Counted from the first letter of the stretch, positions 6,293-32,000 are shown. The stretch is 32,000 nt of DNA from Candidatus Calditenuis fumarioli (GCA_030059665.1 JANVYR010000001.1:595548-627547); one strand, 5' to 3'. A program made the numbers and translations. Notes: generated by a model from the letters alone, not told the origin.

Positions 6293-7289
6293 CGACCCTC
6301 AGCCAGTCCCGAAGGCGTATCTCCATCCCGTACCTCAGCTCCTTCGACTTCATGTGGAGGAAGATCCCGAGCAGCAGCCTCAGGTTCGTCAGCGGGTTCC
6401 CCTCGCCGCGTATCTTGTTCCTGATGTACCTGAACGCGGTCCAGAGGGGCTCGAAGAACCCGATCAACTTCGAAGGGTACTCCTCGAGCCTTCCCTCACG
6501 GAGAAGGGACGAGAACAGCTCAGCCGACTGCATCCCCGGTATGATGCCCTCCCCGAGGACGGGGTAGACGGCTCCCACGCTCTCGCCGACACCGTAGACG
6601 TTGCCATGGACTATGGGGACCGCGAGACGGGGCGGGGTTATCCTGACGGGCCTTCCGACCTTCGCGATCACCTCTCCGCCGTTCCTCGCCACGAACTCGT
6701 TCAGGACCTCGACGTGGCGCTTGTAGTAGTCACCTGCCCCGACGTGGGCCAGCCCGTCGCCCAGGGGGAAGTACCAGAAGTAACCCGAGAGCGGTTTGAT
6801 GGGTTTGACGTAGAAGTCGTCGAGCGGGGGGTCCCTGTACCTGATCAGGTACTCCAGAGTCGGGATGTAGTAGTCCTTCTGGAGCCTTGGGAGCAGCACC
6901 CTGTGGAAGCCTGTGGCGTCGACCACCACGTCGCCCCTCACCTCGTCGACCCTTCTGACCTCAGCTCCGTACGTGACCTCGACCCTCCTGTGCATGTCGA
7001 GGATCAGCCTCCGCTTGTCGAAGGTGCAGAGCCCCTTCAGCGGGACTTCGATCGCTTCGTCTCCGAGGTCAACAGTCATCCGCTTTCCGACGTGGAGGAC
7101 GTAGTCGTCGAACTCGATGTCGACGAGCTCCAGTAGCCTCCTCATCTCGTGGTAGCTCGTGCCCCAGGCGCAGACCGCCCTGAAGCTCTCCGGTCTCTGT
7201 CGCTCGAGGACCCTCAGGTCGTGCTCCCCCCTAAGCAGGTTCGCGAGGTAGCTCCCGACGATCCCGCCGCCCGCGATCGTCACCCTCAT
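6276..7289 (-). CDS. FAD-dependent oxidoreductase, geranylgeranyl reductase family
   Basis: MRVTIAGGGIVGSYLANLL dinucleotide-binding start, then GYFWYFPLGDGLAHVGAG and GESVGAV..LGEGI motifs typical of GGR-like flavoproteins. The ORF is open to 7349; I prefer the ATG at 7289. Confidence 0.55.
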   Translation of the reverse strand: MRVTIAGGGIVGSYLANLLRGEHDLRVLERQRPESFRAVCAWGTSYHEMRRLLELVDIEFDDYVLHVGKRMTVDLGDEAIEVPLKGLCTFDKRRLILDMHRRVEVTYGAEVRRVDEVRGDVVVDATGFHRVLLPRLQKDYYIPTLEYLIRYRDPPLDDFYVKPIKPLSGYFWYFPLGDGLAHVGAGDYYKRHVEVLNEFVARNGGEVIAKVGRPVRITPPRLAVPIVHGNVYGVGESVGAVYPVLGEGIIPGMQSAELFSSLLREGRLEEYPSKLIGFFEPLWTAFRYIRNKIRGEGNPLTNLRLLLGIFLHMKSKELRYGMEIRLRDWLRVVTTYG

Positions 7290-7447
7290 CCGGAAGACGG
7301 TTCTCGGAGCGGCTATTATCGGTAAGCTCCCGTATGGGGACCGGGTCATCGATCATTTCTCATAATCCCATCCAGGCGCGCTGTAGCTCTATGTCCAATA
7401 AAGACTGTTGCATGCCGCACGTCGGATGATTAACCTTTTTCAGCCGG

Positions 7448-8569
7448 TTGAGGAATGCGAACGTAGGGAAGCTCTTGATCAAACTGCACTTGAGGAACTT
7501 CAAGGGCGTAGTTGAGGGAGAGATAGAGCTTCCTGACGTCTCGATATTAGTAGGAGGAAACAACTCGGGCAAGTCGACCATTTTGGAGGCGATCTTCCTA
7601 GCTCCTGATCCCTTAAGGGGGACTCCATACGGAGCTAAGATGCCTCCAATTGCAGTAATCGAACGCATACATTCTACACTTCGGGGTCGAGGATATGCCT
7701 TCCTCCTCAACAATTATTCAGCCGATACCGCAGAAATCTCCCTATCAGTTGACTCAAAGGAATTTAACCTTCACATCGTTAAAGGCGAGCGTACTATTGG
7801 ATTCTGTACGAAAAACCCAGCAGGTTTAACTTATTTTTATGGTGCTGGAGACAAGTTCTCAACTACATACTATTTGACTTTCGGCCAGCCATATAACGAC
7901 ACTTATCCACAAAGTTGTATGGACGATGCTGAAAGGACCCGAAGATTCATAGAGCGAGCGGGCCTCAGTTTCGACTATATTATCAAGCGTCGAGATCGTA
8001 TTGAGACACTCCTTTATCATCCATCTTTACTTGATCTTGTAATCGAAGGTCTTCCGCATAGGTGGGCAGAGGTACAACCTTTAACCAAGAGCGTCGCATC
8101 GAAATTATCAGGTCTTTCGTGGGATGCGATTGTAAACATCACGTTCGAGCCGTTCGGAGGCTCGGTTGAAAACATCACACTCTACGCGCAATTGGAAGAT
8201 GGTAGGAGGGTCAGAATAGGTGACCTAGGGGACGGAGCTAAAAACTTGTTAGTCAGTATGCTCCTCTACGAGATCTCACGACCTAAAATTCTGCTATTAG
8301 ATGACCTGGAGAGTCACATGAACCCTAGAGCATTGGACGTGATGTTCGATTGGTTATGGGATGAAATCAAAGAGGGTCTCCGGGTTGTGGCGTCCACACA
8401 CAACATAGAAGTGGCAAAGAGGTTTCTGAGCAGGTTTGATCAGTCAAAGGCCATCCTAGTGGGGCTGAAGCAAGGCAGGCTTGGTTACAGGTCGTTCACG
8501 TTAGACGAACTCGAAGATTTGGAGGCGGGGGGCCTGGACATCCGAGTTGCGGAGGCCTTTCTGCTATGA
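7448..8569 (+). CDS. ABC-type (AAA_15/AAA_21-like) ATPase, first gene of a two-gene accessory module
   Basis: Walker A GGNNSGKST, signature-like LGDGAKNLL, Walker B ILLLDDLESHMNP, and H-loop STHN. An alternative TTG start at 7475 would give the typical N-terminus MIKLHLRNFKG. Visibly lower G+C than its neighbours. Confidence 0.75.
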   Translation: MRNANVGKLLIKLHLRNFKGVVEGEIELPDVSILVGGNNSGKSTILEAIFLAPDPLRGTPYGAKMPPIAVIERIHSTLRGRGYAFLLNNYSADTAEISLSVDSKEFNLHIVKGERTIGFCTKNPAGLTYFYGAGDKFSTTYYLTFGQPYNDTYPQSCMDDAERTRRFIERAGLSFDYIIKRRDRIETLLYHPSLLDLVIEGLPHRWAEVQPLTKSVASKLSGLSWDAIVNITFEPFGGSVENITLYAQLEDGRRVRIGDLGDGAKNLLVSMLLYEISRPKILLLDDLESHMNPRALDVMFDWLWDEIKEGLRVVASTHNIEVAKRFLSRFDQSKAILVGLKQGRLGYRSFTLDELEDLEAGGLDIRVAEAFLL

Positions 8570-9315
8570 GGCTTGACATCACATCAGCAAAATACCGGAT
8601 AAAGTCGGCTATAGAAAAGGCGTTTGATCTTTGCAGCATTCAACTTAAGCGGGCGATGGGTGAAATAGAGCTTGTGGTCGTTATAATGGACGGTAGCGAG
8701 GACTCACGTGTCATTGCCTTACTACTGCACAGACTTAACGGAGAATGCTCAGCAGCCATAATCACACCAAAAGATCTCGGAACGGACAACGTTGGCAAAA
8801 ATCTCGCAACCTATATGAGCAAGGGAGTGAAGCAAAGGGCATTCCTCGTTGTGCTCGATCAAGAGGAGCTACAGTTAAATGAAGTATGGCGAAGGATTGA
8901 GGATTCGCTCAAAAAGCACGGAATTGCATACAAAGAGTGCGAACCCGGAGATAGGTGGAAAATATATTCGTGTAACCACGGTGATAAAGAGTTCCTCGTT
9001 GGCGTTGTCATTAACGGGCGAGATCTGCCGTTCCAAAAGCATTCTATTGAGGACCACCTGCTCGAGCTGCTCAACAAGCTCGCGGACACGACGTCATCAC
9101 AACAGTTAACCAGTCTGAGAGTAGCTGCTAATTCATCTAAGGATGCATGGTCGAAAATTGCAAAGAATAACCACGATGTCCAGCGGATGGTTTACAGTGC
9201 GGTCGTGAACAGCGAACACGCTTCCACTGTTTTCCAGCAACATGTGAACGCTGTAGAGAGATTGAGGAAGATGCTGCGTGGGCAGAGGTTCGATTGTGGT
9301 AAGTCATCAACGTGA
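8566..9315 (+). CDS. Hypothetical protein, possible Toprim/DUF4276-like nuclease partner of the upstream ATPase
   Basis: ATGA start/stop overlap with the ATPase gene. Three motifs sit in Toprim-like order: LVVVIMDGSED (aa 36-46), FLVVLDQEE (aa 93-101) and SIEDHLLELL (aa 160-169). An alternative start is at M31 (8656). The function is inference only. Confidence 0.45.
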   Translation: MRLDITSAKYRIKSAIEKAFDLCSIQLKRAMGEIELVVVIMDGSEDSRVIALLLHRLNGECSAAIITPKDLGTDNVGKNLATYMSKGVKQRAFLVVLDQEELQLNEVWRRIEDSLKKHGIAYKECEPGDRWKIYSCNHGDKEFLVGVVINGRDLPFQKHSIEDHLLELLNKLADTTSSQQLTSLRVAANSSKDAWSKIAKNNHDVQRMVYSAVVNSEHASTVFQQHVNAVERLRKMLRGQRFDCGKSST

Positions 9316-9412
9316 TCCCGTCATAACACCGTTAACCCTGAGCGGGTAATGCGTAACATCCGAGGGTGAGTGTCGAGGACTGTTGGGAGTCGTAGGAAGG
9401 TCATTCCCTCTG

Positions 9413-9422
9413 CCATAAAACC
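9413..9422 (-). terminator. Oligo-T tract downstream of tRNA-Leu
   Basis: The minus strand reads GGTTTTATGG about 40 nt past the tRNA 3' end. Archaeal terminators are T-runs. Confidence 0.3.
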
Positions 9423-9458
9423 AGTACCGTCAGACCGTCAGCATACCGTTAACATGTC

Positions 9459-30392: not shown

Positions 30393-30815
30393 ATGGAAGG
30401 CGAGCTCAGACCCGAGATCGAGGACTGGTTCTATGAGGCCTGCGTCGACCTCGAGGAGGCGGAGGACGCCCTCAGCAGGGGAAGGAACAACTGGGCCTGC
30501 TTCGCAGCCCAGCAGGCCGCAGGGAAGGCCCTCAAGGCAGCGTACCTCGCGATCAAGAGGAGGCGCTTCCCTAGGACCCACGACCTCCTCGAGCTTTACC
30601 TCGAGCTCCGGGGTGAGATCTCAGTCGGTGACGAGGGGAAGATCGGGCTCCTCTCGTCCTTCTACGAGCTGTCGAGATACCCCAACGCGGGCGTCAGGAG
30701 ACCCTCCAGGTCGATCTCAAGCGACGTTGCCCGGGAAATGCTTAACCTCGCTAAGGAGGTAGTGAGGACGGTCGGTGAGAGGATTGGCCTCGCGTGCGGC
30801 CCCCAAACTCGGTGA
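30393..30815 (+). CDS. HEPN domain protein (toxin component of a HEPN-MNT pair)
   Basis: 140 aa. A..L.....W..A.F.A.QA..KALKA and a ...PRTHDL motif (R-x-H, the HEPN catalytic signature). Confidence 0.75.
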   Translation: MEGELRPEIEDWFYEACVDLEEAEDALSRGRNNWACFAAQQAAGKALKAAYLAIKRRRFPRTHDLLELYLELRGEISVGDEGKIGLLSSFYELSRYPNAGVRRPSRSISSDVAREMLNLAKEVVRTVGERIGLACGPQTR

Positions 30816-31143
30816 CCTCGGTTTGCCCGAAGACGTGAGGAGGAGGATCGAGAGGGCCGTCGAGGTGATCAGGAGCGTCGCGGCCGACGCGAGGGTTCTG
30901 CTCTTCGGGAGCTTCGCCCGAGGGGACTGGCTCGAGGAGAGCGACATCGACCTTCTGGTGATATCCGACGCGTTCGGGGGGATGAGCTACCTCGAAAGGC
31001 TCGAGAGGATAAAGAGGGCCCTTCTGGAGAACGGCCTCCCGAGGGTCCACGTGATACCGCTGACGTGGGGCGAGCTTGAGGAATTGGGTGAGAGGAGCGT
31101 CGTGATCAGCGACGCGCCTGAGTATGCCGTGGAGGTGGTCTGA
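30775..31143 (+). CDS. Minimal nucleotidyltransferase (MNT; antitoxin/AMPylase partner of HEPN)
   Basis: VLLFGSFARGDWLEESDIDLLVISD is the G[SG]x9-13[DE]xD polymerase-beta-type NTase motif. It overlaps the end of the HEPN gene, and its exact start is uncertain. Confidence 0.8.
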   Translation: MRGLASRAAPKLGDLGLPEDVRRRIERAVEVIRSVAADARVLLFGSFARGDWLEESDIDLLVISDAFGGMSYLERLERIKRALLENGLPRVHVIPLTWGELEELGERSVVISDAPEYAVEVV

Positions 31144-31226
31144 TTCCGAGATCTTCTGCTGTGTTAGCCCTCAACTTTCCTCGCGAGAACGACGAGTTCA
31201 GCCGAGAAAACGCGAAATCTCCGTTG

Positions 31227-31328
31227 CGGGCCCGGTGGGACTCGAACCCACGACCTTCCGGTTAACAGCCGGGCGTTGAAGATATTGGGGGAATACCCCA
31301 ATATACTCTTCCGCTGAGCTACGGGCCC
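31227..31328 (-). tRNA. tRNA-Asn (anticodon GTT) interrupted by a ~30-nt intron in the D arm; no encoded CCA
   Basis: Hand fold. Acceptor GGGCCCG/CGGGCCC. D stem GCTC...GAG|C split by the insert. Anticodon stem CCCGG/CCGGA (one C-A mismatch) with loop CTGTTAA. Variable loop AGGTC. T arm GTGGG-TTCGAGT-CCCAC. Discriminator G. Confidence 0.8.
31276..31305 (-). other. Non-canonical tRNA intron (D-arm position, about 24/25)
   Basis: TATATTGGGGTATTCCCCCAATATCTTCAA contains a perfect 9-bp stem, ATATTGGGG/CCCCAATAT. Removing it restores the GCTC/GAGC D stem. The exact splice junctions are not determinable by eye. Confidence 0.6.
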
Positions 31329-31352
31329 ACGTACTGATTATTTTCCATCTTA

Positions 31353-31363
31353 GCATTTAAACC
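31353..31363 (-). promoter_or_regulatory. TATA box (minus strand GGTTTAAATGC) for tRNA-Asn
   Basis: An A/T box centred about 30 nt upstream of the tRNA 5' end at 31328. Confidence 0.45.
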
Positions 31364-31625
31364 TTAGTAGACGAAAGAAGACACCGTTCGGATGAGCGTC
31401 AGCTCCGTCGATCTCTGCTCATCCTCATCGCTTACCGAAATCACATGATTAACTCGATGATAAGAAAGGGAGTGATTTCAGTTAGCAGATGGTTGTCAGT
31501 ATTGTTTAGGGGAGCCGGAATGAGGACCTCAGGCATTCGGCTGTTAATTGCTTCATCCCCCCTCGCGGTAGGTCTGCATTCGGCGCTCTATTGCCCAGGT
31601 CCCCATCCGGCTCTTTCCCCCGTTC

Positions 31626-32000
31626 TCACCTCTTCATCGCTTTTAGTGTATTCTTTACGGTTTTCAGGACCTCCCGCACCTCTTTGCCCTTGATCTTCTG
31701 CCTTCCCTTCACACTAATTGTCAGCGATTCTGTCGCATCTTTCAGCATTTTGTTGTACTTTCCGTCGTTCGGATAGTAGTTACCAGTATAGGTCAATATC
31801 TTCCTCAGCCCTAAGCTGAAGTCCACGTACAACAGCAGTTGGACCAAAGCTACCCTGCCGTAGAGGCATTTGCCTGAGCTGATCCTCAATCTCTCCGATA
31901 TCTGATGGATCGGTAGGAAGCTTCTCGCCAGTGCGTCTATCTCCCTGGCCAGCTTATCTTTCCGCCTCCTCAGGTGATTGATGAGATGTCTGTAGTGTGC
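31626..32000 (-). CDS. 3' part of a hypothetical gene running off the right edge (low-GC, possibly mobile-element derived)
   Basis: The frame is open from the window edge to the TGA at 31626: AHYRHLINHLRRRKDKLAREIDALARSFLPIHQISERLRISSGKCLYGRVALVQLLLYVDF...KAMKR. No recognisable family. G+C is visibly lower than in the core genes. Confidence 0.4.
   Translation of the reverse strand, partial: AHYRHLINHLRRRKDKLAREIDALARSFLPIHQISERLRISSGKCLYGRVALVQLLLYVDFSLGLRKILTYTGNYYPNDGKYNKMLKDATESLTISVKGRQKIKGKEVREVLKTVKNTLKAMKR

Follow-up and report, generated by a model that had tools for sequence, protein, structure and literature searches.

In a window of 32,000 nucleotides from Candidatus Calditenuis fumarioli (GCA_030059665.1 JANVYR010000001.1:595548-627547; all window positions are counted from its first letter), we analyzed a pair of overlapping genes on the plus strand, gene 1 at 7475-8569 and gene 2 at 8566-9315. 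Gene 1 encodes an ATP-binding cassette (ABC) ATPase, gene 2 belongs to an unannotated, mostly archaeal family that is homologous to OLD-like Toprim proteins, and the two genes are strictly paired and coupled. We consider it probable, at roughly 0.6, that the pair is a horizontally acquired, split OLD/PARIS-like two-gene module in which the ATPase would regulate a Toprim-derived nuclease, with a role that is probably antiviral and of the abortive-infection type. The antiviral reading builds on the homology and on the strict genetic coupling, together with the analogy to the PARIS, Septu and Gabija systems. An earlier note, made from the sequence alone, had proposed a candidate archaeal defence system of this kind here, and its individual claims are considered below together with the results that bear on them.

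The coupled gene pair and its ATPase

The two reading frames share an ATGA start/stop overlap at 8566-8569 (plus strand), indicative of translational coupling, and translation confirmed this overlap as well as all of the motifs that the earlier note had quoted for both genes. In the eleven genomic contexts obtained by exact-protein look-up, the ATPase gene was always immediately upstream of gene 2. Another 80 metagenome loci were found using a gene 2 motif derived from a 14-sequence alignment, and among these the ATPase was encoded directly upstream on the same strand in all 61 loci having at least 1 kb of upstream sequence, while its 3' part was seen in 14 of the 19 loci with shorter upstream sequence. 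The gene junction was an NTGA overlap in 71 of 75 loci (ATGA in 68), and the pair is thereby conserved as a unit. When 666 neighbouring open reading frames (ORFs) were clustered in the search for a third component, no family was present in more than 6 of 83 loci, with the recurring ones reflecting lineage synteny. The pair is a self-contained two-gene module.

The composition of the pair was aberrant, and the AT-richer patch described earlier between the flavoprotein gene and the 3' side of tRNA-Leu(CAG) proved to be the lowest-GC segment of the window. GC content was 0.46-0.48 over 7500-9000 versus about 0.63 elsewhere in the window, with the GC of the pair (0.473) ranking first, i.e. lowest, among 604 equal-size sliding windows (mean 0.621, sd 0.042). 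The GC content at third codon positions (GC3) was 0.50 for gene 1 and 0.52 for gene 2, to be compared with 0.78-0.91 for neighbouring genes. A GC content below that of the flanks was likewise found for the pair in 11 of 11 look-up loci and in 37 of 43 metagenome loci (mean -0.046, Wilcoxon p=3e-7).

The longest ORF of gene 1 runs from a TTG at 7448 to 8569. However, the TTG at 7475 is most likely the start codon, giving a protein of 364 residues, because the identical 364-residue database protein P0007 begins there and because a homolog of 55% identity (locus L007) becomes similar at the nucleotide level exactly from 7475 onward, where its own start codon is aligned. The segment 7350-7474 (GC 0.50), reaching from the start of the divergent flavoprotein gene (7349) to that of gene 1 and forming the left edge of the low-GC island, is therefore intergenic, so that of the module span 7350-9458 proposed earlier the gene pair at 7475-9315 stood while this first segment did not. 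Downstream, the intergenic segment 9316-9458 (GC 0.52) forms the right edge of the island, whereupon a complete tRNA-Leu(CAG) gene follows on the minus strand (9459-9546), the 3' end of which abuts the island as a boundary mark outside the system. In public annotation gene 1 is given as 359 or 364 residues, the region concerned being 7448-7489. For gene 2, the NCBI annotation begins at Met31 and gives 219 residues, omitting 8566-8655; since relatives share the first 30 residues at 26-51% identity and the AlphaFold2 (AF2) model is confident over them, with a predicted local distance difference test score (pLDDT) of 94-96, the start overlapping the ATGA, yielding 249 residues, is the better call. 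The Met31 start conceals the ATGA coupling and cuts off a conserved N-terminal strand and helix of gene 2.

Gene 1 scored above the Pfam gathering thresholds (GA) for both AAA_21 (57.5 bits, GA 27, E 3e-15) and AAA_15 (53.2 bits, GA 32.1, E 5e-14), and its PADLOC matches were, best first, AriA, NsnB, PDC-M38A, Old, GajA, mad3, HEC-01/02A and AbiLi. Against the PDB, a 16-sequence gene 1 profile matched nucleotide-binding domains of ABC transporters, Thermus OLD (6p74), PtuA, retron ATPases, SMC and Rad50, and Foldseek with the AF2 model (pLDDT 84.3) found SMC heads, Septu PtuA, Rad50 and retron ATPases at E values of ~1e-11 to 1e-12. These scores, an SMC-head-like fold and the expected motifs, two of them in variant form, place gene 1 in the AAA_15/AAA_21 (OLD-ABC) clade, in agreement with its earlier description as an ABC/AAA_21-type ATPase.

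The Walker A motif or P-loop GGNNSGKST (7553-7579, plus strand as for all motifs given here) had G36, N38, N39, S40, K42 and T44 invariant among 16 homologs. A degenerate ABC signature GDLGDG, followed by AKNLL, replaces LSGGQ at 8219-8236, with D259, L260, G261 and G263 invariant, and the H-loop (switch) STH, followed by N, at 8393-8401 has invariant T317 and H318. The Walker B region ILLLDDLESHMNP (8288-8326; gene 1 residues 281-293) reads LLLDD (hhhhDD), with D286 invariant across the ATPase family at the usual position of the catalytic Glu, as compared with the consensus motifs hhhhDE for Walker B and SGG for the signature (PMC12065111). The DD Walker B together with GDLGDG suggests an ATP switch that is slow-hydrolysing or conditional. 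Residues of about 100-200 in gene 1 were highly variable and partly modelled at low confidence; by analogy, they may have a role like that of the insertion in PARIS, which its authors predicted to take part in trigger recognition (PMC11464382).

Gene 2 and its relationship to OLD-type Toprim proteins

A search with the single gene 2 sequence found six relatives only. Partners of more distant gene 1 homologs proved homologous to gene 2 and a profile search then yielded 97 proteins; when 1.84 billion representatives were searched exhaustively with a hidden Markov model (HMM), 272 clusters (at 50% identity) were matched with E<=1e-3. Nearly all of the best 150 of these 272 clusters were stand-alone proteins of ~225 residues. 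The named sources were Nitrososphaerota, Odinarchaeota, ANME-1/Methanophagales, Thermoplasmata and Thermoproteota, in addition to one "Desulfobacteria bacterium". The neighbourhood of this last member (protein P0043; locus L036, contig Ga0307378_10001750), with genes for an archaeosortase, the pair, DUF1786 and GatD, was syntenic with that of an ANME-1 contig (L040), at 67-80% identity; judged from this, the contig is probably archaeal and mis-binned, and the gene 2 family may therefore be even more strictly archaeal than its labels indicate.

No precomputed Pfam domain was assigned to any member of the family, no match to gene 2 was found in NCBIfam or PHROG, and its description as a protein without obvious family thus held at the thresholds of the Pfam, NCBIfam and PADLOC models. 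Below threshold, gene 2 matched DUF3226 (PF11536) over residues 39-148, in the alpha/beta core, with 22.2 bits (GA 27, E=1.4e-4), and the PADLOC mad4 model over residues 37-121, spanning both acidic motifs (5.9e-5). Given that these were the only such matches, the earlier comparison with DUF4276, DUF4435 and RloB did not hold as regards membership. We found no mention of DUF3226 or PF11536 in the literature searched, and PDB sequence searches with the gene 2 family profile and with a bridging protein gave nothing meaningful.

As the direct model matches were too weak to decide the matter, we used two bridging proteins that were found via the ATPase. The first, P0023, is a fused protein of 552 residues and the second-most-distant among the gene 1 matches listed (E=3e-10). 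It has AAA_15/21 and OLD-like_TOPRIM domains (the latter with 43.9 bits in Pfam, GA 23.2, 3.5e-11), and its Toprim segment also matches DUF3226, which therefore overlaps the Toprim core. Comparison with full-length P0023 using hhalign gave a probability of only 2.5%, and was replaced by a comparison of the cropped region with the HMM using shuffle controls: the gene 2 family HMM matched the C-terminal 213 residues of P0023 with 14.3 bits (P=9e-7 as a single comparison), a score reached by 0 of 3000 shuffled sequences (maximum 8.8). In this alignment llDqE falls on vvDaD, KH(T/S)IEDHL on RHTMEDYL and SK on SK. The second bridging protein, of 230 residues, is encoded next to a Fischerbacteria ATPase (locus L033) and has the canonical motifs IIVEGDVD and LALDLD. 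It was matched by the gene 2 HMM with 20.3 bits (P=1.3e-8, 0 of 1000 shuffles; hhalign E=8e-5), to be compared with at most 1.9 bits for seven unrelated control proteins from the window. Here D/N42 aligns with the Toprim Glu, G43 with G, D46 with D and D98/E100 with DxD. At L033 (3707-5674) the pair lies directly upstream of genes for a TIR_2-ankyrin protein and PNP_UDP_1, a setting resembling a defence island. On the basis of the two alignments we conclude that the gene 2 family descends from the Toprim and helical catalytic region of OLD-type proteins.

The three motifs in Toprim order that had been recognized earlier were in register with the bridging proteins, the first and second being altered. 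Conservation was determined in 72 members. The equivalent of Toprim motif 1, LVVVIMDGSED (8671-8703), covers beta1 and the following loop, with D42 at the position of the Toprim Glu, G43 kept in 71 of 72 and D46 in 69. The DxD equivalent, FLVVLDQEE (8842-8868), lies at the end of beta3 and is present as the variant D98-Q99-E100, with D98 in all members, Q99 in 66 and an always acidic position 100 (E in 60, D in 12) that aligns with the DAD and DLD of the bridging proteins. At the start of the helical domain, NG...KHSIEDHL, followed by LELL (9013-9060), contains N150, G151, H159, I161, E162, D163 and H164, which are all invariant or nearly so. The last motif, SKDAW (9136-9150), has K192 and W195 each in 70 of 72 members, aligns with the DSK of P0023 and is a candidate equivalent of the region with the catalytic Lys of OLD. 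Thus D46, D98, E/D100, E162 and D163 were conserved at 96-100%, and R130 was nearly invariant. Departures from canonical Toprim are the loss of the Glu, a fixed Q99 in the DxD equivalent, and H159, D163 and H164 as invariant additions.

These residues can be compared with Burkholderia OLD (BpOLD), having a two-metal site with E400, E404, D455, D457, T506, E508 and K562 (PMC6755086). E400 corresponds to position 42 in gene 2 (D in 38, N in 34 of 72), E404 to D46 (69/72), D455 to D98 (72/72) and D457 to E/D100 (72/72). For the remaining three, the mapping was inferred from order and local motif, not from superposition, and pairs T506 with position 160 (T in 22, S in 15 and C in 14 of 72), E508 with E162 (71/72) and K562 with K192 (70/72).

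In the confident AF2 model of gene 2 (pLDDT 91.4, predicted template-modelling score 0.89), a strand and a helix at the N terminus precede a b-a-b-a-b-a-b core (36-126), which is followed by a beta-hairpin (131-150) and, at the C terminus, by a bundle of helices (161-237); the alpha/beta part as a whole takes up residues of about 36-150. Taking secondary structure alone, the predicted succession b(36-40)-a-b(62-66)-a-b(92-98)-a-b(121-126) fits that of Toprim, the fold itself being defined as a three-layer alpha/beta arrangement with sheet order beta2-beta1-beta3-beta4. The sole global-looking match of the model was to the Toprim and helical C-terminus of BpOLD (6nk8_B), at template-modelling scores of 0.39/0.46 and a non-significant E value of 0.24.

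Genomic contexts and history of the host locus

The distribution of the pair across loci was patchy and independent of context, and its composition was foreign. Neighbours of defence or mobility type were seen at L034 (Mrr_cat, DUF2357/PDDEXK_7 and a resolvase), L038 (PIN, TumE and PaREP1), L033 (TIR-Ank) and L011 (Fic). Between the closely related genomes of loci L014 and L015 the flanks were 95-97% identical, while the pair was only about 80% identical. In L014 (1817-2392), gene 2 is stopped prematurely, at 191 residues versus 226 in L015, an example of effector decay. On one ANME-1 contig the pair was found in a context different from that of two others, which are considered further below.

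The locus of the window was present in at least six assemblies of metagenome-assembled genomes labelled "Nitrososphaerota archaeon", and the flanking flavoprotein, the best match of which in another species was 84% identical, places the organism in Candidatus Calditenuis/Calditenuaceae (Caldarchaeales). Among 15 related species representatives, none had the pair beside this flavoprotein gene. Its position was instead occupied in 4 of the 15 (L019-L022) by a HAD-hydrolase gene of normal GC, with no homolog in the window, and in other sister Calditenuaceae species by other DNA. The order in L021 is tRNA-Leu, HAD and flavoprotein, with a tRNA 93% identical to that of the window; nucleotide similarity between the window and L021 ends at the 3' end of the tRNA and leaves the intergenic segment 9316-9458 outside it. 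The locus is consequently polymorphic for presence and absence among relatives and not syntenic, and from gene order and composition the pair clearly appears to be foreign and to have displaced resident DNA at a variable spot. The adjacency to tRNA-Leu noted earlier is real in this genome, but as a trait of the family it was ruled out, being found in 3 of 80 loci.

Orphan 3' fragments of tRNA-Leu were observed in two of the sister genomes, adjoining the HAD-flavoprotein genes, at L020 6827-6871 (93% identical to window positions 9461-9504) and at L022 345-374 (100% identical to 9462-9491); L020 also has a complete tRNA-Leu, with an intron, 4.3 kb from the orphan fragment. These fragments resemble scars of attachment (att) sites, which suggests that tRNA-Leu may be an integration hot spot in Calditenuaceae.

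Elsewhere in the window, a second patch of lower GC is found at 10530-12350, beyond the tRNA and phosphoribosyltransferase genes. It contains an orphan ORF (10628-11707, 359 residues, GC3 0.66) having no Pfam, NCBIfam, PADLOC or PHROG match and, after it, an ORF-poor stretch with a perfect 17-nt inverted repeat (11847-11863 and 12278-12294, 414 nt apart). As the conspecific contigs L001 and L002 differ in the genes following this ORF, the junction is either variable or mis-assembled. A pair of toxin-antitoxin type, with 41 nt shared between its HEPN gene (30393-30815, Pfam 4.7e-25) and its gene for a minimal nucleotidyltransferase (30775-31143, NTP_transf_2 5e-13), lies at the margin of a third low-GC patch (31000-32000). 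Just after this pair, on the minus strand, comes another tRNA gene (31227-31328, 102 nt), found by Rfam and missed by ARAGORN, probably because of an intron.

Known systems, proposed mechanism and competing explanations

A close parallel in layout is PARIS, with an AriA ABC ATPase and an AriB DUF4435 Toprim nuclease (proposed as class 4 OLD), which has the same split order of AAA_15/21 ATPase and Toprim effector. The best PADLOC matches of gene 1 were to AriA models (1.3e-17 and 1.9e-15), although they covered the models only in part, over two stretches, and numerous further ATPase models matched too. In PARIS the ATPase holds and releases the nuclease (PMC11464382), a logic likely to be shared here. 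Gene 2, on the other hand, had no AriB/DUF4435 match at E<=1 with Pfam or PADLOC, nor had any of the 72 members; the proteins are of 249 residues for gene 2, compared with about 35 kDa for AriB, and 364 residues for gene 1, compared with 53-55 kDa for AriA; and here the Toprim Glu is not conserved and the family is mostly archaeal. Lacking DUF4435, the pair was ruled out as a member of PARIS.

With OLD proteins of class 1/2 (P2 Old, Gabija GajA and Burkholderia OLD; 6NK8, 6P74), gene 1 shares the ATPase clade, as seen in the 6p74 profile match (1e-7) and the PADLOC matches to Old and GajA, and homology links the gene 2 family to the Toprim and helical C-terminus of the fused OLD-family protein P0023, the invariant residues of the family being collinear with E400/E404, D455/D457, T506/E508 and K562 of BpOLD. 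The differences are that OLD is one polypeptide while the pair is two genes, that E400 has become D/N and DxD has become D-Q-E, and that gene 2 has the extra invariant H159 and H164 and an extra beta-hairpin. Membership in OLD classes 1-3 was ruled out, the genes being separate with their NTGA overlap and not fused, and so was Gabija, with no UvrD/GajB-type helicase in the annotated contexts and no recurrent neighbour family.

In MADS, Mad3 is an AAA_15 ATPase and Mad4 a DUF4276 protein, the latter described as a member of the Toprim superfamily (PMC12065111). Gene 1 matched mad3 (PADLOC 1.3e-9; NCBIfam MAD3 1.4e-6), but with 27.8 bits it was far below the 420-bit cut-off of NCBIfam, and the mad4 match of gene 2 was seen in only one of 72 members. 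As MADS comprises eight genes including a methyltransferase and other mad genes, while the pair has neither conserved neighbours nor a Pfam DUF4276 match, it was ruled out. Membership in Pfam DUF3226 was also rejected, the score of gene 2 lying below 27 bits. Septu PtuA-PtuB and retron PtuAB are alike in the fold and size class of the ATPase (Foldseek 8eea/8ee4, E ~6e-11; retron Eco7 ATPase, 2e-10), and in Septu a small nuclease is under the control of an ATPase oligomer (PMC12065111); the Septu effector is, however, an HNH nuclease, while gene 2 is Toprim-derived. Finally, gene 1 matched the PDC-M38A models of the PADLOC candidate PDC-M38 (7e-12 to 4e-9), but PDC-M38B matches were marginal (E ~0.007) and rare (4 of 72 gene 2 relatives), and the pair would therefore not be called by these models.

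That an ATPase can control a nuclease has been established in PARIS, Septu and Gabija (PMC11464382, PMC12065111, PMC10568477), and by analogy with these and with OLD we infer for the pair a physical complex, a nuclease activity with its substrate and trigger, and an antiviral role. ATPase dimers or oligomers would keep the effector inactive until a viral cue alters the ATP-bound state of the ATPase, for which the DD (not DE) Walker B suggests a slow-hydrolysing switch. The effector would then be released or activated and, with a metal site formed by D46, D98, E/D100, S/T160, E162 and D163 and assisted by H159, H164 and K192, would cleave nucleic acid (DNA, or tRNA/RNA), thereby aborting the infection.

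Several observations weigh against this reading. As regards gene 2, position 42 has D 38 times and N 34 times among the 72 members in place of the Glu that follows beta1 in Toprim, and with Asn in about half of the family catalysis may therefore be altered or lost. Foldseek searches of the gene 2 model in PDB and BFVD (viral) gave no match at E<=1e-3, and thus the proposed Toprim-like nature stood with regard to homology via the two bridging proteins and conserved acidic residues, but not with regard to a significant fold match. Nor were weak matches concentrated on Toprim-clan models when the 72 members were scanned with Pfam and PADLOC, where DUF3226 was found below threshold in 1-2 of 72 (E<=10), mad4 (DUF4276) in one, and, as the most recurrent weak match, HTH_40 in 14, in the C-terminal region. 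As regards mobility and context, many loci lie amid housekeeping genes, and two ANME-1 contigs share the same slot (archaeosortase, pair, DUF1786, GatD), in which the pair diverges about as much as its flanks. No relatives were found on IMG/VR viral contigs with the one pattern searched, and none beyond P-loop-only matches in PLSDB plasmids and GenBank phages. Even with up to 3 mismatches allowed, the tRNA 3' end occurred only once in the window, and integrase or transposase domains were found neither within ~10 kb on conspecific contigs nor among the inspected ORFs of the window, in line with the earlier remark that no mobility gene accompanies the pair. Repeats within 6800-13000 amounted to short matches at chance level, with no convincing flanking repeat. 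Thus neither an att repeat nor an integrase speaks for canonical integrase-mediated insertion of the pair.

Three other explanations were weighed, all of which we find less likely than the split OLD/PARIS-like reading. The pair could be a selfish addiction module of toxin-antitoxin type, with a nuclease toxin that the ATPase restrains and with maintenance through post-segregational killing, as would agree with the compact and translationally coupled two-gene unit, its scattered insertion amid housekeeping genes with foreign GC, the toxin-antitoxin-type neighbours at some loci (PIN/TumE in L038, ParE in L036) and the occasional decay exemplified by the truncated gene 2 of L014. We hold this to be improbable, as the characterised pairs of AAA_15/21 ATPase and nuclease (PARIS, Septu, Gabija, OLD) all serve phage defence (PMC11464382, PMC12065111, PMC10568477) and a 364-residue ATPase would be an unusually costly antitoxin; the two readings do overlap, since abortive-infection systems are themselves toxin-antitoxin-like.

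Unlikely to a similar degree is that gene 2 has no catalytic activity and serves as an adaptor or sensor of Toprim-like type, the pair acting through ATP-dependent binding or sequestration or via an unlinked effector. Such a role would fit the replacement of the general acid/base Glu by D/N (Asn in 34 of 72), the change of DxD to D-Q-E, the absence of a significant structural match to active Toprim enzymes and the recurrent weak HTH_40 matches. However, the pattern of invariant D98, H159, D163 and H164, nearly invariant E162, K192, D46 and R130 and an acidic position 100 is that of an active site rather than a scaffold, BpOLD tolerates single substitutions of metal ligands including E400 (PMC6755086), and no co-occurring third gene was found that could serve as effector.

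Least probable is a cellular complex for DNA repair or chromosome maintenance, with an SMC/Rad50-like head ATPase and a dedicated nuclease as in Rad50-Mre11 or SbcCD, for although Foldseek ranks SMC and Rad50 heads first for gene 1, the ANME-1 slot is syntenic with flank-like divergence and many neighbourhoods are of housekeeping type, the family has a rare and patchy occurrence, with 272 clusters among 1.84 billion representatives, the pair is absent at the locus in sister Calditenuaceae and has a GC3 of 0.5 versus 0.8-0.9, gene 1 has no coiled-coil insertion, and the ~80% identity of the pair between flanks of 95-97%, its pseudogenisation and the differing context in the third ANME-1 genome all argue against it.

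Returning to the split OLD/PARIS-like reading, a bolder form of it, which is possible but which we regard as doubtful, would make the family a distinct, mainly archaeal class of OLD-like immunity in which the Toprim site was rebuilt, with the Glu lost and H-x-I-E-D-H and a Lys as new catalytic groups, and in which the ATPase with its DD Walker B would be an ATP-bound switch and not a motor. Such a class would sense archaeal virus proteins and might have an effector chemistry or substrate, e.g. tRNA or rRNA in hyperthermophiles, unseen in OLD, Gabija and PARIS.

Experimentally characterised antiviral systems are overwhelmingly bacterial, and in archaea little has been mapped of immunity other than CRISPR and restriction. 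The architecture of the pair would not surprise specialists; the new part is an unannotated, largely archaeal and sizeable effector family with a remodelled active site, whose altered catalytic motifs amount to a natural experiment on the Toprim residues that cleavage requires. Should the pair not be defensive, it would still illustrate neatly how a mobile cassette of two genes takes the place of a housekeeping gene, here beside a tRNA gene with integration scars in sister genomes. Because the effector family (~270 clusters) is unannotated in Pfam, NCBIfam and PADLOC, automatic defence-finders miss it, and a profile made from the present alignments would allow the module to be annotated across archaeal genomes. 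If the split OLD/PARIS-like reading is right, the pair would carry the OLD/PARIS design to thermophilic and anaerobic archaea of the Caldarchaeales, ANME-1, Odinarchaeota, Thermoplasmata and Thermoproteota.

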